Source: Escherichia coli O157:H7
GTDB taxonomy: Bacteria > Pseudomonadota > Gammaproteobacteria > Enterobacterales > Enterobacteriaceae
DNA: 64,000 nt
Assembly: GCF_013167455.1 (NCBI RefSeq)
Contig: NZ_CP038328.1
Strand: one strand, 5' to 3'
The notes below the pieces were generated by a model. That model was not told the DNA's origin and did not search any database. It was given only the letters and a program-made list of their open reading frames with translations. Shown in pieces: positions 30,344 through 40,366 of this stretch (position 1 is the first letter of the stretch; each line of letters starts with the position of its first letter). A program made the position numbers and the translations under genes.

Positions 30344-30369
30344 TTGGTGCCGAAGGCCGGACTCGAACC
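30344..30369. repeat. 26-bp direct repeat of the leuX 3-prime end (att-type repeat, island junction)
   Basis: TTGGTGCCGAAGGCCGGACTCGAACC is identical to 40414-40439, which lies inside the tRNA gene; flanks diverge on both sides. Confidence 0.8.
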
Positions 30370-30859: not shown

Positions 30860-31324
30860 CTACTTTCTCAGCTTGTCCCACCGAACCGCAGATACAATAC
30901 CCCAGTTGCCGCTAGGATTAGGCCTACGCCATTTTGCTGTCTCCATGCTACGAAGATACTCAAGAGCTTCAGAAAACGTGCCAAACCGCTTCTGAGCCGT
31001 TTTATCACCTACGCCAAACGAGCCATCGCGAGTGCTTGCCAGCCCGGGATGAAAACACGAGCCATCAGCTGCATAAGGAACCAGTAATTCCGGGTCACTA
31101 TCTTCAGATGAATCAGACACCAATAGTCGCCACGGCTCAACACTCAGAGCATTAGCCAGCACCTCAATCGCATCCAAAGACGCATTAGAGCCACCGCGTT
31201 CAATGCGGCTCATATAGCTACGAGCAAAACCACACCGATCGGCAAAGGCTTCTTGGCTCATTCCGGTGGCAATGCGCAACTCTTTTACTCGTTGTCCAAA
31301 CAGTTTTCTCAGGGTCATTTTCAT
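30860..31324 (-). CDS. XRE-family helix-turn-helix transcriptional regulator (154 aa)
   Basis: Track ORF; N-terminal HTH LRIATGMSQEAFADRCGFARSYMSRIERG. Confidence 0.7.
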   Translation of the reverse strand: MKMTLRKLFGQRVKELRIATGMSQEAFADRCGFARSYMSRIERGGSNASLDAIEVLANALSVEPWRLLVSDSSEDSDPELLVPYAADGSCFHPGLASTRDGSFGVGDKTAQKRFGTFSEALEYLRSMETAKWRRPNPSGNWGIVSAVRWDKLRK

Positions 31325-31440: not shown

Positions 31441-32214
31441 ATGTCAAAAACACGGCTTAGTAAGCCCGGTTTTTCAGCCAAGTCTGTGCTGACCATTATG
31501 TTAATCGCTGCGTCATCTGCATCTTATGCAGCAGAAAGCATCGATCAACTGGCGACGCGCATCGGTATGGATCACTTCCGGGAAGCGATCAAAAAGGGTG
31601 AACGCAGCGCCTTCAAAACGCTGCCGGCAAAAGGCTATAAAAACGGTCTTACCGGGCTGTTAATCAAAACTAACACTTACGTTAACCCCGAATACAGCTT
31701 TGCTGATTGCGATACGGACACCGTTATTATCTCGGTGCAAGAACACAAAACGCTTCCCGGTTGCCGTATATCTTTAAAGCTAGCGACAAAAGACGCAGAT
31801 GGCAGTTATCACGACAATGGAATTCGCGTTGAATACGGTATTGCCATCGGCTCCAAAAAGTTTATCGCTAACAATTCAGCGTGGGCGCAACATGCCATCA
31901 GCGGTGATAAAGTGTTGGAAGGCGCTCTCCACCCGGATAAAACGAATAACAATAAAGATCAAATGAATAACAATAAAGATCAAATGTGCATGGGTATGGC
32001 TCAATTTACCGCAAACGTAACCGAAGGCCGTAACAGTGGGATGACGAAAAGAGAATATTATCAGCGACTTGATAACATGAACGGTAAGGCCGACGTCACC
32101 CAGCAGATGATAACGCTCTATAAGACTTTTGTTGACTACGTATATGAACATCCAAAGCAAGACGCAAAGATTTCAGGGACGTATATTTATACTAACTGTA
32201 TGAACAACTTCTAG
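31441..32214 (+). CDS. Secreted or periplasmic protein of unknown function (257 aa) with internal NNNKDQM tandem duplication
   Basis: Track ORF; Sec-type signal peptide (hydrophobic core LTIMLIAASSASYA then AES); divergent from the XRE regulator. Confidence 0.6.
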   Translation: MSKTRLSKPGFSAKSVLTIMLIAASSASYAAESIDQLATRIGMDHFREAIKKGERSAFKTLPAKGYKNGLTGLLIKTNTYVNPEYSFADCDTDTVIISVQEHKTLPGCRISLKLATKDADGSYHDNGIRVEYGIAIGSKKFIANNSAWAQHAISGDKVLEGALHPDKTNNNKDQMNNNKDQMCMGMAQFTANVTEGRNSGMTKREYYQRLDNMNGKADVTQQMITLYKTFVDYVYEHPKQDAKISGTYIYTNCMNNF

Positions 32215-32365: not shown

Positions 32366-33682
32366 ATGAATGACGGTGTTATGCTAGATTCTGACGTTAT
32401 TGCTGGTCTTGAGTGGTTAGCATCAACTCAAGAGAACAAACAACACTTTTACCAGCGCTTAGCAAAAGCACAGCAATTTTACATAGCTACAACCCAAAAA
32501 GCTGCCAATTTCGGGAAACAGTTTGACCCAGAATGGTATGGTTCCGACGTGGTTGCTGGTTATTTCGCACAAGCAAAATCGCTTATCGATAATAGAAGGT
32601 CTTACGAAGTTACTAATGCTTCAAATATAATACCATGGGTTAAACAATTAGGAGTGTGTGCTAAATCGCTCGATAGAATTACTGGCGCTAGAGATCGCGC
32701 AATCAGAATGCTTAAGAATACAACAGTATTACCAGACACAGCCTTATTAGAGTTGGTTCTTGCTGGAAACTATGCATCAGAAGGTTATGAAGTTGAGTTC
32801 ATTCCAGAACAAAAAGGGATAGCAAAAACCCCGGAGTTTCGTTGCCGCCTTGGAGATGGCGATTATTTCTTTGTCGAATGCAAAAGGCTTCAGAAAGGTC
32901 CTTACGTAAAGCAGGAAATATTACAGCATCATATACGCTCACATCTTGCCGAACTTCATATCAAATCCAAAAAGATGAACGTATGGACTGATGTCACATA
33001 TTTATGTGAAGTTAAAGACGCGCCTGAAAACTATATCATTAGCCACTTAAAAAACTTTAAAGGTGTATTTTATGAATGGAATGATGATTATGGAAAAGGA
33101 ACGATTAGACCGGCCAACTTAAATCTTATCAGGGAAGATATCACTGAAAACGGCTCATTACTAGTCAACACTAAACTTGCTCGTCTTATCAAAGGCTCCC
33201 CTCTGGAAGATGAAAATTACCAAGTTGTTGCTATGGGACGACCAGATGAGCGCGACTCACGTTTCATAACCAAAGTTAAACTTGCTTCTTTGATAACATG
33301 GCGTTGTATCAATGAAAAATCTTTCGATGCACGTTCGCGACATGTAACAAAAACATTAGCAGAGATAGATAACCAGCTTTTGGATTATGGTCTAGGCGTA
33401 GGGCATATAGCTTTGGATGTAGATATTCAAAAGGATGTTGCCGATAAACGAAGGGAAAAAAACTATGCTGCCATAGTAAATTTTGAGCAAAAATCTAAAA
33501 TAGTCCGCCTGAATGTTCATTATCTCGTGCCACGCATAGATGAGAACTCTGCGTGGATGGTAGATGAAACTGCGGATGACTTTTTTACCCATGATCTGGT
33601 CAAATATGTTATCCCATTGACTAAAATATTCCCCGAGGCTGAGGTATTTGAGAATGACCAACCTGGCTGGCATCAAAATTAA
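32366..33682 (+). CDS. Hypothetical protein (438 aa), AT-rich; possible PD-(D/E)xK-type nuclease motif
   Basis: Track ORF with AAGGA ribosome-binding site; segment GDGDYFFVECKRL fits a D...ExK pattern. The assignment is weak. Confidence 0.5.
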   Translation: MNDGVMLDSDVIAGLEWLASTQENKQHFYQRLAKAQQFYIATTQKAANFGKQFDPEWYGSDVVAGYFAQAKSLIDNRRSYEVTNASNIIPWVKQLGVCAKSLDRITGARDRAIRMLKNTTVLPDTALLELVLAGNYASEGYEVEFIPEQKGIAKTPEFRCRLGDGDYFFVECKRLQKGPYVKQEILQHHIRSHLAELHIKSKKMNVWTDVTYLCEVKDAPENYIISHLKNFKGVFYEWNDDYGKGTIRPANLNLIREDITENGSLLVNTKLARLIKGSPLEDENYQVVAMGRPDERDSRFITKVKLASLITWRCINEKSFDARSRHVTKTLAEIDNQLLDYGLGVGHIALDVDIQKDVADKRREKNYAAIVNFEQKSKIVRLNVHYLVPRIDENSAWMVDETADDFFTHDLVKYVIPLTKIFPEAEVFENDQPGWHQN

Positions 33683-33880: not shown

Positions 33881-34450
33881 TCAGTAACCCTTATTCAGTA
33901 ATGCAGCAAGCGTCGCTCTTGAAACACCGTATTCACGCGCCAATGCGCTAACACTAACCCCAGCGGCCCTTTTGTCTAAAATCGCTCCACGAGCTTCCGG
34001 TGCGATTTTAGCAGGCCTGCCCAATTTCCTGCCTTCAGCTTTTGCCCGTAACAGCCCCGCATTAGTCCGTTCAATCAGCAGGTCACGCTCCATCTCCGCA
34101 ACCGCTGCTAGCATCGACAACAGGAGCTTACCGGCAGCAGAGGTGAGATCAGTGGTGCCAAGCTGATGGACAATAACCTTGATGTTTCGGTCAGCCAACG
34201 TCCTGACAGTTTGCAGAACGTCAATTGCATCACGCCCGAGGCGGTCCAGCTTTGCAACTACCAACGTTTCCCCATCGCGGATTTTGCTGAGCATTTCAAA
34301 AAACGCTTTGCGTTGCACCGCAGGAACCTTTCCGCTGACTACATCAGAAAACCAAAAGTCGAACGTCCACCCAGCTTGTTCAAGTTCCATGCGCTGGTTC
34401 TCAGTATCCTGCTGGGATGTCGAAACACGCCCGTAGCCAAAAATAGCCAT
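33881..34450 (-). CDS. Serine recombinase (resolvase/invertase family, ~189 aa)
   Basis: Track ORF trimmed to MAIFGYGRVSTSQQ; catalytic Ser in the GYGRVS motif, VAKLDRLGRD, C-terminal HTH. Confidence 0.8.
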   Translation of the reverse strand: MAIFGYGRVSTSQQDTENQRMELEQAGWTFDFWFSDVVSGKVPAVQRKAFFEMLSKIRDGETLVVAKLDRLGRDAIDVLQTVRTLADRNIKVIVHQLGTTDLTSAAGKLLLSMLAAVAEMERDLLIERTNAGLLRAKAEGRKLGRPAKIAPEARGAILDKRAAGVSVSALAREYGVSRATLAALLNKGY

Positions 34451-34642
34451 AGTCATCTCCTCATCCGGCCCCTGCCAGAAAACGGTGATGAAAATAGGAT
34501 GGCCTGCCGGAAAAGCCAAGGCTAATTTTCCAACAGTGTGAAAGCGTGCGGTTGGAGGATGCCGGAAAACGGTCGTTTGTTGGCGCTTAAAACGGGTGAA
34601 GACATGTTAGGCTGAAACCATCACTTCATAAGGACAACCGAA

Positions 34643-35110
34643 ATGATTAAAGACGCGATTTTTTCACCGTGCGGTAAGTATCGCTACTCGTTATCACGAG
34701 TCTGGGACGAATCAAAACCGTATACCCTTTTCATAGGGCTAAACCCTTCATACGCCGATGCCGAGAAGGATGATCGCACCTTGAGCCGCTGCATATCGTT
34801 TGCCAAAAGCTGGGGCTACGGTGGCGTATACATGGCCAACCTGTTCGCATTCGTTCACACCCAGCGACATGAAATGATGAAAGCGTCTGATCCCATTGGC
34901 AAAGATAACGATAGCCACTTGATACGTCTTGTTAGCGGTGCCGGACTGGTTGTCGCCGCATGGGGAAATGAAGGAAGACACCTCAAACGCTCAACGACCG
35001 TCCGACAGCTATTGCCAGAGAGCACAATGTGCTTCGTCTTAAACGCTACAGGTGAGCCGAAGCACCCTTTGTATATGAAAAACGACAGTGTTCTCATACC
35101 TTTAGGTTAA
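34643..35110 (+). CDS. DUF1643-family protein (155 aa)
   Basis: Track ORF; FSPCGKYRYSLSRVWD and LNPSYADAEKDD blocks recalled as DUF1643 hallmarks; divergent from the serine recombinase. Confidence 0.6.
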   Translation: MIKDAIFSPCGKYRYSLSRVWDESKPYTLFIGLNPSYADAEKDDRTLSRCISFAKSWGYGGVYMANLFAFVHTQRHEMMKASDPIGKDNDSHLIRLVSGAGLVVAAWGNEGRHLKRSTTVRQLLPESTMCFVLNATGEPKHPLYMKNDSVLIPLG

Positions 35111-36113
35111 CATCGATAACTGCGTTCAGAATATGAACGCAGCCATATGATATATATGACTTTTCTTTAAAATGATGGTGTGCTAGCTTCTCTCCTGACA
35201 CCTACCTCATGCGGTAAACCGGTCCGGGTAGGTGGAGATCACCGCTGTTTAGCGGAAGACGTCAGGATGGGAACTCTGCGTAACGTTGATTGTGGTAGGT
35301 AGGGCGCGCAAGCGTTTGATGCAGCCAAGCAGAGGGTGAAAGTAGCTATCGGCGGATTCTTAAGTAGCTTCTTTTGCGCATAATGCATCTTTCAAGAAAG
35401 GTCGTCACACCACGAGGAAGACTTGATCTTCATCTGGCAAGGGGAACCGAGCAAACCTACAGGCTATCTTCTCAGATGGCCTTAGGGTTGATATGTCCGG
35501 CTTCCCCCCCGAGGAAGGGTTTACATCTTAAAGAACAAGTTATGTTTTAACATTTTTAACAATTACACTTCTCTGCTGTTTGGTGTCTTATGGCGTTCCC
35601 GTCAAAAGTAAAGCTGCCGTTTTTACCTCACATGCGTAACAACCAAACACGAACCAGAAGCTGCTAACGTTCAACGTGTTCGCGGTGTAAATGCAGCCGG
35701 ATAAGTTGGGAGCGAAAAAGTGGATGTCCTAGGTTTGGAAGCGCCCCTCTTAAGCATTGCATCCGATAATTTCCGTGGCGGTGAGACAGTCCTTATAGAG
35801 GCAATCAGCCTCCAAAGTTAAGCGACGCGGTAAAACTAAAGCTCGCCCAGATTTCTCATTGATTGCTCGAACTCCGCTACGCTTGTTTCAACTGGCTTCA
35901 CCAGTCACTCTATGAGAGCGCCGCGAATTCTGCACCATGATTTCGACTACCTTCTTTAAAACACTCGCCAGAGAGCCTTACAGCGCGTTTGAACCGCATA
36001 TCGCAGCTTCTGCTTACGGATGACTGTCTGATTAGCAGTAGCTTCATGGCCCAGTCCGGTTTACTTTATTGCTATCAACTAGGAGCCGCCCAAGGGCAAC
36101 ACGGAGATAACGC

Positions 36114-36446
36114 TTGAGAACCGTCGAAATACTGCAATACACCTTACGCAAAGGCAGCGGTGCCGCTTTTCACGCCATAATGCAGGAAATCAGTGTTCCC
36201 CTACACCAAAGCCACGGGATCGATGTTGTTTCGTTTGGCAACTCGCTTGATGACCTGGATTGCTACTACTTGATTCGCGCCTTTGACAGCGCTAAAAGCA
36301 TGACTGCGGTTCTCGATGCTTTTTACGCAAGCGCAGACTGGCGCAGCGGCCCACGCGAAGACATCATTGGCAGCATAGAGAACTGCATTAAAACAGTGAT
36401 TAGCCTACCATCAGAAAGCGTGAAAGGGCTGCGGATGCAATCGTAA
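36114..36446 (+). CDS. Small protein (110 aa), NIPSNAP-like / dimeric alpha-beta-barrel candidate
   Basis: Track ORF with TTG start and GGAG ribosome-binding site; pattern VEILQYTLRKGSGAAF...YYLIRAFDS resembles NIPSNAP-type proteins. Confidence 0.4.
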   Translation: MRTVEILQYTLRKGSGAAFHAIMQEISVPLHQSHGIDVVSFGNSLDDLDCYYLIRAFDSAKSMTAVLDAFYASADWRSGPREDIIGSIENCIKTVISLPSESVKGLRMQS

Positions 36447-36567: not shown

Positions 36568-36945
36568 ATGAATTTAGATGAAGAATTTTACGAATTACAA
36601 AAACTCTTTGCTCAGAAGGATCTACTGACTGAGAAAAGACGCTCTAGTGGCGGCGGATTCATGGAAATTCTCTTGGTGAAGAGACAGAACATGAAGATAA
36701 AAATATATCAAGAAAAAGGACATCAACTTCCCCATATTCATATTGACTATGGAAAACAAGCGCATGCTGCCAGTTATGCCATACAATCAGGAGACCGCAT
36801 AGAGGGAGATTTACCTAAGAAATATGATAGTGATGTTTCGAGTTGGTTGGGGAGAAATCGTGATAAAATTTTAGAAATCTGGAATGCACTACAAGCTGGC
36901 GCACCTTATGAACCACTAATCGCAGAATTGACTGGCGGAGTGTGA
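36568..36945 (+). CDS. DUF4160-like small protein (125 aa)
   Basis: Track ORF; PHIHIDYGKQ motif typical of the DUF4160 family as I recall it. Confidence 0.5.
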   Translation: MNLDEEFYELQKLFAQKDLLTEKRRSSGGGFMEILLVKRQNMKIKIYQEKGHQLPHIHIDYGKQAHAASYAIQSGDRIEGDLPKKYDSDVSSWLGRNRDKILEIWNALQAGAPYEPLIAELTGGV

Positions 36946-37127: not shown

Positions 37128-38018
37128 TCAGGCTGCCAGATCATCGTTTCCGATGGAAGCATAATAAGCTTTTTCTGCTTCTGCCGGAGGAGTATGGCCC
37201 AGCCTTCCCAGCAATCGTCGATTGTTATACCAGTCCACCCACGTTAGTGTGGCCAGTTCCACTTCTGCACGGTTTTTCCAGCTCTTACGGTGTATTACCT
37301 CCGCTTTGTAAAGACCATTGATGCTCTCAGCCATCGCGTTGTCATACGAGTCGCCTGTACTCCCTGTTGATGCCAGTAATCCGGCTTCTTTTAGTCGCTC
37401 CGTATAGGCCAGTGACACATACTGAGAGCCTTTATCGCTGTGATGGATGGTGCCAGACGGACGACGGGCCCACAACGCCTGCTCCAGCGCATCCAGCACG
37501 AATGTCGTTTCCATAGACGATGAGACCCGCCACCCCACGATGTATCCGGCAAACACATCAATGATAAACGCCACATAGACGAAGCCCTGCCATGTGCTGA
37601 CGTAAGTAAAATCAGCCACCCACAGCTGGTCAGGTCGTTCTGCCACGAACTGACGGTTTACGCGGTCGCCTGCGGCAACGGCTTTCCGGCTGATGGTCGT
37701 ACGGACCTTTTTACCCCGGAGAACACCGGCAAGTCCCATAACCGCCATGAGACGTGCCACTGTACATCTGGCCACCCTGATTCCTTCCCGTAACAACTGA
37801 CGCCAGACTTTACGCACACCGTACACCTGATGATTTTCATCGTATACGCGCTGTATCTCTCTCTTCAGCCAGTCGTCGTGCTGCGCACGGGCACTGCGTT
37901 TATCCGGATGATGTCGCTGTTGCTGACAATGGTAATACGTTGACGGGGCAATATGCAGTTCGCTGCATACCGGTCCGACCCCGTACTGCTCACGCAGCTT
38001 ATCCAGCAGTGGCATCAT
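37128..38018 (-). CDS. IS629-like transposase OrfB (DDE catalytic domain)
   Basis: Track ORF; DDE region ...WVADFTYV...[11 protein letters not shown]...[16 protein letters not shown]. Confidence 0.85.
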
Positions 38019-38341
38019 TTTTTCCAGAGGCGGTCGAACTCCGCCTTCGCAAAATAAGCGGAAGCCTGGCGAAGGATATCGTTACTGCGGCGCAGTTCAC
38101 GATTTTCACGTTCCAGCTCTTTCAGACGCTGACGTTCAGCGCTGGTGAGCCCACCATCACCGCCCCCGGTATCCCGCTCATGCTGGCGAACCCAGACACG
38201 CAGAGTCTCCGGCGTACAGCCAATCTTTGGGGCAATGGAACAAATTGCCGCCCACTGTGAGTCATATTCATCCTGACTTTCCAGAACCATACGAATCGCC
38301 CGCTGACGGACTTCGGGGGAAAAACGAGTATTTTTAGTCAT
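38015..38341 (-). CDS. IS629-like transposase OrfA (108 aa)
   Basis: Track [25 protein letters not shown]...; HTH plus leucine zipper, matching IS629 OrfA from memory. Confidence 0.85.
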
Positions 38342-38392: not shown

Positions 38393-40366
38393 TCACTTTC
38401 TTCGCAGCGCATCTCTTACAGCATCCAGCCCATCAGGAATGTTGAATCTCGCTATCTCGGGCAAAGAAAAATCAATCTTTTCGACAACCTCAACCATGTG
38501 AACCGGTTTTAAATCTTTGCTGTATCGCACTTCAGTTTCTGTTTTGCCTCGCACATGCCCAAGTAGCTGCCCACGCAGTTCCGAACTAACACCCTTCTCT
38601 TTAAGCAAAGTTGAAACAGAATGCCGGAAAGAGTGGAAAGATTTGCTTCTGTCTCTTTCAAGTTTTAATCGACCCGCAAGCAATGATTCATTGAACCATG
38701 CGGAAACCGGCCTACCATAGCCTTTGGTTTTATGTGGTTTAAGCTCGGGAAAAAGACGGTCATACCCGGCAGCTTTCAACGCATCCACATACTCGATAAA
38801 ACCGAGTTCAATCAGCGTAGAATGAACCGGAATCTTGCGGCGGGAATTGGCGTTTTTTAGTTTCTTTCCGTTTTCGCTATCGCTTTCAAGGTTCAGGTAA
38901 TAAACGCCGTCATCTGCCAGAACATCGTCCAGCATTAACTGTGCAATCTCGTTAACCCTTGCCCCCGTCATCAAGCCCAACAACGGCGCCCAATAGTGAA
39001 ACGGGCAATATTGATGGAATCGCCCTTGCGCATTACGTTCAACAGTTCCAGCGACAAACCACGGTTGCGAAAAAATTGCCTTAATTTCATGCGGTTCAAA
39101 TATGTCAGTGTGATCCTGCTCTCGCTCACCTTTGTCATCGGGAGGGAAAAAGTTGTCGCATGGCGATTTCAGAAACTTACCATCATCAACAGCCCACTCC
39201 ATTGCACCATAAAGGCCGTTGATATACTTTTTGACAGACTCTTCTGTCATCAGTTTATCGCCACATTCTGCCGCTTTGGCGATTAACTCATCCAGCGTCT
39301 TAACCCCGTGCTTACCTTTCATCAAATTACGGTTAGCAGGAATTGTGCGCAACTTGCTCTCATAAGCCCGGAGGAAATCACGGTCGAAATCTTCCAACTG
39401 AATATCCCCCATCACTTCAATCATCAAATCGAAGTAATAGCGAATATCGCGGAGCGCCGCTTCTGATACCTTGCCCTTACGTCGATGTTTCAAATACTCT
39501 TCACGAAGCCATGACAAGTTTTCATTGTAATGTTTGCGGTGAACATATTCATTAGCGATAACAGGAGCGACAAGAGGCACGGCAGGGTGAATGCTAACTG
39601 CTGGTGGCGTGGTCTTAACCAGCCATGTAAGTCGAAGGCCTTCAGCATGAACTTTGCTAATCAACAGGCTATCAGCAGTTATATCTACGCCGGGTAAATC
39701 GAAGAACCAACCTCCACTTTGGTTATCACCACTAGTTCGAAATGCAGCCTCTCCTTCGGATACTCCAGCGCTCAACAGACAATCTAAAGTATGCCGGGGA
39801 TTGAAGGGGCGGAGATAACCATTTGCGAAGCTCTCGATACCCAGCTCAAACGCGCTATTGAGAATGATGACTTCTTTAGGTTGATCCTTTTCATCATCAG
39901 ACTGTTTTTCTCGTTTTGCACCCGGTTCCCGCTCTACTGCATTAAATTCATCAACATAGAAACCGAACTGACCAGTCGCCAGCCAGAATACCGGGAGGTT
40001 ACGATTAACCACCTCTCGAATCAATTGCGATATAGGCAACTCGATTGATTGAGCAAAGTTAGAAAGCGAGATCATACCCTCACCAGCAAGCAGTGGGGCG
40101 CAGTCACTTAAAGTTCGATAATCCAATTGTTCATACTCTTGTAAGGTCTGATACCAGACCGCCAACAGGAGCGCGGACTTCTGCTTTGCTTCATGAAGAT
40201 CGTGAGTGCCTGTTGAAGTGTGAATCTCACACTGTCCTGCGTATCGACGAAAACGTTGGGGAACGCTAATGCGGACAACATAAATGCCGCTGGTTCGACG
40301 ATAGAGTTTATATCGCTGAGACATCGCCTCGTATACCCTTTTGTAAGAGGGGCTACGCGATTTCAA
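38393..40366 (-). CDS. Tyrosine recombinase / integrase with long N-terminal extension (657 aa), next to leuX
   Basis: Track ORF; catalytic signature TGARVNEI...HSFRHSVSTLL...LLGH...VRYSKDL. The stop codon is supplied by the IS629 terminus. Confidence 0.75.
   Translation of the reverse strand: MKSRSPSYKRVYEAMSQRYKLYRRTSGIYVVRISVPQRFRRYAGQCEIHTSTGTHDLHEAKQKSALLLAVWYQTLQEYEQLDYRTLSDCAPLLAGEGMISLSNFAQSIELPISQLIREVVNRNLPVFWLATGQFGFYVDEFNAVEREPGAKREKQSDDEKDQPKEVIILNSAFELGIESFANGYLRPFNPRHTLDCLLSAGVSEGEAAFRTSGDNQSGGWFFDLPGVDITADSLLISKVHAEGLRLTWLVKTTPPAVSIHPAVPLVAPVIANEYVHRKHYNENLSWLREEYLKHRRKGKVSEAALRDIRYYFDLMIEVMGDIQLEDFDRDFLRAYESKLRTIPANRNLMKGKHGVKTLDELIAKAAECGDKLMTEESVKKYINGLYGAMEWAVDDGKFLKSPCDNFFPPDDKGEREQDHTDIFEPHEIKAIFSQPWFVAGTVERNAQGRFHQYCPFHYWAPLLGLMTGARVNEIAQLMLDDVLADDGVYYLNLESDSENGKKLKNANSRRKIPVHSTLIELGFIEYVDALKAAGYDRLFPELKPHKTKGYGRPVSAWFNESLLAGRLKLERDRSKSFHSFRHSVSTLLKEKGVSSELRGQLLGHVRGKTETEVRYSKDLKPVHMVEVVEKIDFSLPEIARFNIPDGLDAVRDALRRK

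Follow-up and report, generated by a model that had tools for sequence, protein, structure and literature searches.

Introduction

Large structured non-coding RNAs (ncRNAs) such as ROOL, GOLLD, HEARO/omega RNA and OLE were found by comparative genomics and are often carried on mobile elements. In ColE1-type plasmids, the place of a Rep protein is taken by RNA II, a promoter-driven and highly folded replication pre-primer that lacks an open reading frame (ORF), while the single-strand origins ssoA and ssoU, which occur with Rep_trans-type initiators, are non-coding, strand-specific and base-paired segments of 150-300 nt. Horizontally acquired DNA of enterohaemorrhagic Escherichia coli (EHEC) O157 also encodes anti-sRNAs, or sponges of small RNAs (sRNAs), among them AgvB and AsxR, which are approximately 50-100 nt long, bound by Hfq and dependent on short pairing sites (PMC4104026; PMC5286369). 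Here we describe an ORF-free gap of 1003 nt (positions 35111-36113) in a stretch of 64,000 nt of the E. coli O157:H7 chromosome (NZ_CP038328.1), referred to below as the window. The gap belongs, in strain Sakai, to the 10-kb "phage-like element SpLE5", with tRNA-Leu (leuX) as the integration site. On balance, the left third of the gap is probably an unannotated functional gene for a structured ncRNA of about 330 nt on the plus strand, named here RNA330, which represents a new candidate ncRNA family on a poorly studied family of islands.

RNA330 resembles ROOL, GOLLD, HEARO and OLE in its length of several hundred nt, its many predicted helices (including a GNRA-capped one), its lack of an ORF, its conservation well above that of the flanks and its location on a horizontally acquired element, but differs in having no Rfam match, no IscB or TnpB partner, a narrow host range (Enterobacteriaceae) and much thinner covariation. 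Like ColE1 RNA II, it is a few hundred nt long, ORF-less, folded and promoter-driven according to prediction; it occupies the place of a Rep protein, its 3' hairpin is C/G-rich, and the sequence beyond it is AT-rich, without a canonical terminator. Unlike RNA II, it shows no homology to the plasmid RNA, has no RNA I antisense gene and lies in a slot that also hosts a non-Rep protein, and we regard the relation as an analogy, not as membership. The likeness to ssoA and ssoU consists in the non-coding, strand-specific and extensively paired character and in the association with Rep_trans-type proteins, whereas RNA330 excludes the Rep-like gene, has upstream of it a promoter in common with a protein gene and is represented by an RNA read. 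With AgvB and AsxR, it shares the origin from O157-specific DNA, the lack of annotation, the detection by crosslinking and a potential pairing with a core-genome sRNA (SibE); it differs in being about 330 nt long, in having no entry in the Hfq tables and in being found in one chimera only.

Results

Conservation and Distribution of RNA330

The mosaic composition of the gap was mapped by blastn against divergent relatives, comprising E. coli genomes, plasmids, other Enterobacteriaceae and 58 metagenomic contigs (loci are designated L followed by a number). The following parts were recognized (positions in the window):

35111-35196, control region, left part of the gap
35197-35525, plus strand, RNA330, candidate structured ncRNA of about 330 nt and conserved block, about one third of the gap; predicted 5' end 35196-35198, 3' end uncertain, 35525-35560
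35526-35639, plus strand, AT-rich variable tail or spacer following RNA330, its first ~50 nt about 78% A+T
35640-35690, flank A, about 50 nt, directly left of the core
35691-35803, core, about 113 nt, second conserved element
35804-36113, right-hand spacer and upstream region of the NIPSNAP-like gene

The RNA330 block was 92-100% identical to the window in 26 loci. In six divergent islands (L023, L029, L043, L046, L070, and L073), the block retained 92-97% identity, as compared to 52-65% in the promoter region and 60-93% in the tail, and the proportion of variable columns was 13% in the RNA330 body versus 59-65% in the flanks (59% in the tail). In L070, RNA330 was 92% identical, as compared to 79% at the third codon positions of the DUF1643 gene. 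RNA330 is thus conserved above neighboring non-coding and synonymous sites, as expected of a gene for a structured ncRNA. Within the AT-rich tail, which may hold the 3' end of the transcript, GTTTTAACAT was conserved.

RNA330 was present in 594 of 5,426 complete E. coli genomes, always as a full-length, single-copy, chromosomal and unannotated sequence, and 553 of these copies were at least 99% identical. The chromosomes of E. coli O157:H7 were 100% identical over this region. A match to the whole gap (100% covered, 95.7% identical) indicates that RNA330 is also present in the strain Nissle 1917. The gap was without RefSeq/PGAP annotation in every genome examined; in strain Sakai, where RNA330 lies at about 5352266-5352601 of NC_002695.2 (minus strand), ECs5247 was formerly annotated within RNA330, and its locus tag (ECs_5247) is gone from the current annotation.

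Non-Coding Character of the Gap

In agreement with the first-pass annotation of the window, the gap lies between a DUF1643 gene on the left and a small, NIPSNAP-like gene on the right, has an ordinary GC content (0.46-0.49) and contains no ORF of at least 60 aa, the longest inside being of 58 aa (35374-35550, plus strand). It is the longest run in the window that is ORF-free by this threshold, the runner-up being 555 nt long. By itself, this property is weak evidence, because an ORF of at least 60 aa was also missing from 12% of composition-matched random sequences of 1003 nt.

The same annotation had offered two explanations for the gap, a decayed gene or a structured ncRNA. The decayed gene was contradicted by three results. 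A tblastn search with 11 neighboring proteins, including those whose genes fill this position in relatives, reached a best E-value of 1.9 against the gap; a joined six-frame query of the gap against 5.8 billion proteins gave nothing at E ≤ 0.01; and the best-conserved part, RNA330, tolerates 1-nt indels among relatives, by which the 58-aa ORF is broken. With no protein homology in any frame and such indels in the conserved block, a protein-coding gene or pseudogene was rejected. The structured ncRNA was upheld for about one third of the gap (35197-35525, including the hairpin noted earlier) by one sense read, by conservation of the block and of its predicted promoter, by indels that break the frame and by some covariation, but not for the rest, which consists of spacers and a second conserved element without evidence of RNA structure.

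Comparison with described RNA families gave no match. The 4,227 models of Rfam 15 had no hit in the gap at gathering level and, at permissive E-values up to 10, only noise (GlsR5, E = 6.1; mir-2818, E = 9; SAM-II, E = 9.4). RefSeq annotation and Pfam confirmed the reported absence of a nearby reverse transcriptase or TnpB gene and extended it to IscB; together with the Rfam result, this spoke against the retron-like or OMEGA-type RNA that had been considered. A retron ncRNA (msr-msd) was rejected as SpLE5 has no reverse transcriptase, which occurred only as unrelated cargo in L006, an island without RNA330. An OMEGA RNA/HEARO or IS110 bridge RNA was rejected on the basis of the neighbors (DUF1643, serine recombinase, and NIPSNAP), the sole insertion sequence (IS) being IS629, 1.6 kb away. 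Further candidates were discarded as follows: a tRNA-like or transfer-messenger RNA, since ARAGORN found only the tRNA-Leu at 40415-40499; a type III toxin-antitoxin RNA or iteron origin, as Tandem Repeats Finder gave nothing at a score of at least 30 and repeats were only short two-copy chance matches; a ColE1-type RNA II/RNA I control, given no Rfam RNAI match on either strand; a mimic of a helper's transfer origin (oriT), cos or pac site, as RNA330 had no similarity to plasmids, phages or viral contigs; and an invertible segment under the serine recombinase, as there were no matching inverted copies and the orientation was constant in all loci.

Predicted Fold and Covariation

The RNAalifold consensus fold of RNA330 comprised 121 pairs, with an energy of -119 kcal/mol. 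The predicted helices are:

H1, 35199-35207/35226-35234, inner part 35212-14/35219-21
H2, 35242-46/35251-55
H3, 35258-66/35275-87
H4, 35293-35307/35312-27, with a GNRA loop cap at 35308-11
H5, 35329-52/35360-86
H6, 35387-92/35397-402
H7, 35410-21/35427-37
H8, 35441-69/35474-507
H9, 35508-10/35517-19

The minimum free energy (MFE) was -117.9 kcal/mol for the plus strand (z-score -2.3; none of 100 shuffles was as good) and -98.9 kcal/mol for the minus strand (z-score -1.8). The loop of H4 is GCAA, GUAA or GAAA depending on the variant, and always GNRA. An inverted repeat that had been noticed by eye proved to be above chance: CACCTACCT (35199-35207) with GGGTA/GGTG (35226-35234) corresponds to helix 1, which shows compensatory changes in relatives, and the related GGTAGGTAGGG (35296-35306) is part of helix 4.

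Variation within RNA330 was concentrated in the 5' hairpins. In L029, CACCTACC/GGTAGGTG is replaced by CATCTATC/GATAGATG, a compensatory change, and CCGCU/AGCGG is likewise replaced by CCGCA/UGCGG in L046 and by CCGCG/UGCGG in L073. The number of double-change cells was 10, as compared to 2.6 ± 1.3 in shuffles (none of 500 reached it) and to 0-2 in slid controls. Double changes occurred at four pairs (a number reached by 11 of 500 shuffles) and were confined to the upstream palindrome described below, H1, and H2. Thus, covariation across related islands exceeded the shuffles for these elements, whereas approximately 88% of the predicted pairs were invariant; the support is modest because RNA330 varies so little.

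Control Region Upstream of RNA330

Two elements were distinguished in the control region:

35120-35142, perfect 9-5-9 palindrome, CTGCGTTCA-GAATA-TGAACGCAG, at the left edge of the control region, its center about 66 nt upstream of the predicted start
35161-35189, plus strand, predicted slot promoter, with a T-tract at -35 (35161-35166), TG at 35181-35182 and the -10 hexamer TAGCTT at 35184-35189

The predicted promoter is of the extended -10 form (TGnTAnnnT). Its T-tract, TG, TA, and final T were invariant in 10-20 distinct sequences, as compared to 52-65% identity in the rest of the region, and the predicted start at ~35197 coincides with the onset of both conservation and helix 1. The same control region is found upstream of a gene for a 338-aa protein in sibling islands. 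From these sequence features we infer that 35161-35189 acts as a promoter.

The palindrome was unchanged in RNA330-type and Rep-type islands, except for a symmetric swap of the outer pair from C-G to G-C in 4 of 16 sequences. Because it is also present in L029, where the upstream gene has the opposite orientation, it belongs to the control region and is not simply a terminator of the DUF1643 gene. No T-run follows it. The palindrome is probably an operator and, less likely, a terminator of the upstream gene.

Transcript Evidence

In the RNase E data of Waters et al. (PMC5286369, supplementary file 5), which were obtained by cross-linking, ligation and sequencing of hybrids (CLASH), one chimeric read is labeled "ECs5247-1 5UTR". 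The first half of this read is identical to positions 35302-35337 of the window, plus strand, which shows that the sense strand of RNA330 is transcribed. The coordinates given for the read are ~128 nt off the current Sakai record, an offset attributed to an older sequence version. The partner in the chimera is a SibE-like antitoxin sRNA (Sakai sib locus L075:907-1056, minus strand), and the hybrid of the two is predicted at -31.5 kcal/mol. Positions 35322-35336 of RNA330 can form 14 Watson-Crick pairs in 15 nt with this Sib RNA, a value reached by 3 of 300 shuffles, and pairing with the neighboring Sib copy was at chance level. The segment is nearly invariant among RNA330 variants and also resembles the 3' untranslated region of the ibs mRNA. 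The authors' own p-value for the chimera was 0.37, which is not significant (PMC5286369), and an interaction of RNA330 with Sib, as a link to a type I toxin-antitoxin system, is only a lead.

Searches for further traces of the transcript gave negative results. The paper on EcOnc and Hfq UV cross-linking and analysis of cDNA (CRAC) and two of its supplements contained no ECs5246-5248, SpLE5 or matching coordinates, although this is a weak test, and neither the published sRNA catalogues (EcOnc) nor literature text searches gave a mention of the RNA330 sequence. Antisense pairing of RNA330 to genes of the island or of sibling islands was rejected, with chance 11-12-mers only, and so was pairing of the H1 loop with the NIPSNAP leader (36050-36064), a site that occurs with or without RNA330, hence a chance match.

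The Slot in Sibling Islands

Comparison of the islands revealed a common backbone of the SpLE5 family, consisting of a helix-turn-helix (HTH) regulator, cargo, a serine recombinase, an optional DUF1643 gene, a slot, the core, further cargo and a large tyrosine integrase. Across ~60 loci, the slot, which extends from the recombinase (with or without DUF1643) to the core, had exactly one of four occupants: RNA330, a 338-aa protein, a 308-aa homologue of the latter (47% identical) or a 306-aa protein. RNA330 and the genes of the slot proteins are therefore mutually exclusive. The 338-aa protein and its 308-aa homologue probably have a rolling-circle Rep (Rep_trans-like) fold. The 306-aa protein (L005:4539-5459; homologues P0075-P0165) matches phrog_7003, one homologue being labeled DUF932, and has invariant C51, C56, H60, and C80 (a C-C-H-C signature) and a long helical body; no informative structural neighbor was found for its model (predicted local distance difference test score of 93).

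Flank A is common to RNA330-type and Rep (338 aa)-type islands and marks the right end of the replaced module, the homology with L003, L004, and L007 beginning at 35640-35644; flank A is replaced by another sequence, flank B, in islands with the 306-aa gene. In L023, L029, L043, L046, and other loci, RNA330 is directly followed by the convergent integrase gene, without a co-oriented gene. RNA330 is therefore not a leader of downstream genes, and the NIPSNAP gene was found both with and without it.

A second candidate ncRNA of ~250 nt, named RNA-B, was observed in a conserved ORF-free segment of ~550 nt directly left of the core in L044 (1342-1680, minus strand), as well as in L005, L012, L014, L016, L026, L030, L035, L039, L052, L056, L059, L060, L065, and L068. 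It has a conserved promoter (TTGAAC/TTGCAC-16-TACTAT), a canonical terminator with U6, no Rfam match and a covarying fold, in which pair 193/221 is G-C in six sequences and A-U in five. RNA-B and RNA330 are alike in island family, strand, position just left of the core, lack of annotation and lack of an Rfam match. The two are not related in sequence (nhmmer found nothing), and RNA-B differs in its canonical sigma-70 promoter, intrinsic terminator and clearer covariation, as well as in co-occurring with the 306-aa gene instead of replacing a gene. RNA-B sits at the equivalent place in sibling islands in which the left flank of the core differs, and candidate ncRNA genes are thus found regularly in this part of SpLE5-family islands.

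The Core and the Right-Hand Spacer

The core is a feature separate from RNA330. It was conserved in nearly all islands of the SpLE5 family, with 48-52 distinct sequences from 5 genomes and 58 metagenome contigs, although its apparent conservation is biased by the patterns used to scan for it; two loci of the genome scan, L009 and L011, had matched the pattern by chance. It is single-copy in the window, has a sharp end at TCCTTATA (35790-35797), the sequences to the right of this point being of at least five unrelated types, and marks the edge of a variable cargo region. A structured RNA was rejected for the core: on the plus strand RNAalifold gave no consensus pairs in 44 sequences, the MFE was no better than that of shuffles (z-scores +0.7 and +0.5), and changes that by eye suggested covariation were linked alleles or codon-like changes. 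Read on the minus strand, the core resembles the C-terminal end of an ORF (...YKDxxAxxE[IV]F[GEK]RNA-stop), the stop being conserved in position as TGA, TAA or TAG. An intact minus-strand gene was rejected, as upstream indels break the frame and the reading frame was broken or only 10-82 codons long in all loci; the codon-position signal was weak and biased by the scan pattern. The core was also not an integrase 3' end, having no similarity to integrase C-termini. Our guess is that it may be a DNA site, such as a cargo junction or a place at which a Rep-like protein nicks DNA or initiates replication.

To the right of the core, 35804-35883 carries on the commonest type of sequence downstream of it. 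Positions 35804-35880 are non-coding, because 1-nt indels occur there between relatives. The segment 35884-35991 adjoins the integrase 3' end in islands without cargo at this place, and the NIPSNAP upstream region, including the ribosome-binding site, extends from 35958 on.

Genomic Context

SpLE5 corresponds to the left part of O-island 172 of strain EDL933. Its features in the window, outside of the gap, are:

30344-30369, 26-bp direct repeat at the far end of SpLE5, copy of the tRNA-Leu 3' end
30860-31324, minus strand, Xre-type HTH regulator (ECs_5252, the island HTH protein)
31441-32214 and 32366-33682, two hypothetical proteins
33881-34519, minus strand, serine recombinase
34643-35110, DUF1643 gene (Pfam E-value 1e-42)
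36114-36446, NIPSNAP-like small gene
36568-36945, DUF4160 gene, on the same strand as NIPSNAP and RNA330
37128-38341, copy of IS629 (IS3 family), between DUF4160 and the integrase, with an ALIL frameshift pseudoknot at 37944-38060
38393-40366, minus strand, tyrosine integrase of 657 aa
40415-40499, tRNA-Leu at the other end of SpLE5, the only tRNA given by ARAGORN

Strain TR01, like many other genomes of O157, lacks the IS629 copy at this site. A DUF1643 gene next to a serine recombinase is found here and, according to the literature, in staphylococcal cassette chromosome elements, which suggests that the two form a recurrent module on mobile elements. A truncated second integrase, belonging to SpLE6, adjoins the repeat at 30344-30369; as it directly follows the end of SpLE5, the two elements are in tandem at leuX. 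On the SpLE6 side (~23990-29000), RefSeq annotation lists a type II Zorya system (zorA2, zorB2, and zorE), a phosphorothioated-DNA-binding restriction endonuclease and an STY4851/ECs_5259 family protein, and the region just left of SpLE5 looks like a defense island. In the core genome, and unrelated to the gap, Rfam gathering-level matches were obtained for Ysr276 (46514-46708, minus strand), antisense and apparently within the pepA coding region, and for two naRNA4/REP-type elements (47542-47713, minus strand) between pepA and holC.

Discussion

We infer the promoter activity, the transcript ends, the full fold and any function of RNA330, and the proposed mechanism would be as follows. The extended -10 promoter (35181-35189), under the upstream palindromic operator (35120-35142), would fire rightwards at ~35197; the transcript would fold into about ten helices, one of them GNRA-capped; and the slot would have this folded RNA as its product. 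The same promoter would drive the 338/308-aa Rep_trans-like protein or the 306-aa protein in sibling islands. Because nearly the whole molecule is constrained and a GNRA loop is present, we think that RNA330 may act as a folded RNA, binding protein or working on DNA in cis, rather than through a seed as classical sRNAs do.

Several points weigh against a functional RNA330 gene of this kind. Its folding z-score is modest; with the large share of invariant pairs, covariation bears on H1 and H2 and hardly on the rest of the fold (H3-H9), and single changes in H3-H9 break pairs about as often as they keep them. The transcript evidence is a single read from one dataset, the published Hfq CRAC tables have no RNA330 entry, a simple promoter consensus scan did not flag 35161-35189, and the terminator scan of the gap gave no canonical intrinsic terminator after RNA330. 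No partner protein or target was identified, the matches to island and sibling-island genes being at chance. As all copies are confined to one island family in Enterobacteriaceae, their near-identity could partly reflect recent spread by recombination. Furthermore, the slot is not uniformly a replication module, and functional inference from the slot position is weak because the 306-aa protein (hyp306) has no Rep-like fold.

The same observations can be read in other ways. The block could be a cis-acting DNA element, such as a replication origin, an sso-like single-stranded DNA structure or a transfer origin, whose Rep-like nickase was lost and is supplied in trans. The position of the block is precisely that of the Rep_trans-like gene in siblings, an AT-rich stretch comes after it, its invariance is typical of sites recognized by a protein machine, and compensatory hairpins and G-T pairs are equally expected of strand-specific folded single-stranded DNA. 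We nevertheless consider a DNA element unlikely, as the promoter elements common with the protein-coding alternative imply that the slot is transcribed, a sense-strand read exists, and the loop stays GNRA, a characteristic of RNA; moreover, the block has no iterons or tandem repeats and no similarity to a plasmid or phage sequence that could be the origin of a helper. We give little credence to the idea that RNA330 pairs with, and thereby regulates or sponges, the SibE-like antitoxin sRNA of an ibs type I toxin, in the way of the anti-sRNAs of EHEC prophages. The only published read from the region is indeed the chimera with Sib, with its favorable predicted energy and its extended, nearly invariant pairing site, but it is a single read with a non-significant p-value, the site lies inside the predicted helices H4 and H5, the whole 330 nt and not only a seed is conserved, Hfq CRAC tables lack it, and a chance match of 1% is not rare given the number of sRNAs per cell.

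That the block is functionless (island DNA that hitch-hiked or was exchanged recently, or all that is left of a decayed gene) and looks conserved only through recent spread would fit the identity of at least 92% among all copies of one island family, the near-identity of most E. coli copies, the invariance of most predicted pairs and the frequency of ORF-free sequences among random kilobases. It is decidedly improbable in view of the homologous flanks, which are far more diverged in six independent backgrounds, with a boundary at the predicted transcription start; in addition, the existing variation is compensatory and concentrated in hairpins, protein similarity was lacking in every frame, and the block was never truncated in the 594 genomes. 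A long 5' leader or riboswitch-like cis-regulatory RNA of NIPSNAP-DUF4160, or a small protein (the former ECs5247), is very improbable and largely refuted by the context data. RNA330 is on the same strand as these genes with no terminator found between them, it contains the formerly annotated ECs5247, and the read bears the label "5UTR" in the CLASH table; however, the convergent integrase directly follows RNA330 in several loci, NIPSNAP does not depend on its presence, and the 58-aa ORF has no homologues and is broken in relatives.

If the RNA330 gene is functional, its location where siblings encode a Rep-like protein weakly suggests that it helps to replicate or maintain the excised island, a step that the Rep-like protein would serve in siblings; we hold this role as possible rather than probable. 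The more specific proposal that RNA330 is a functional substitute for the Rep_trans-like initiator, which starts or licenses replication of the excised SpLE5-type circle, has a low probability. Such a substitute could form a ColE1-like pre-primer R-loop at the AT-rich stretch, flank A or the core, or could serve as the RNA cofactor by which a nickase of the host or of a helper is recruited; within one family of integrative elements, a replication module would then have exchanged its protein for an RNA.

An exchange of RNA and protein under one promoter is unusual. Approximately 11% of complete E. coli genomes carry RNA330, yet it is unannotated in the most intensively annotated bacterium, and the region is better annotated as an ncRNA candidate than left blank or assigned to the spurious ORF ECs5247. 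If confirmed, RNA330 would be a new class of structured RNA and would provide a handle on widespread, unstudied small tRNA-integrating islands with defense and colonization cargo, as well as a natural experiment: with one regulated promoter serving an RNA in some islands and a Rep-like protein in others, the role of the RNA would be directly testable by module swap.

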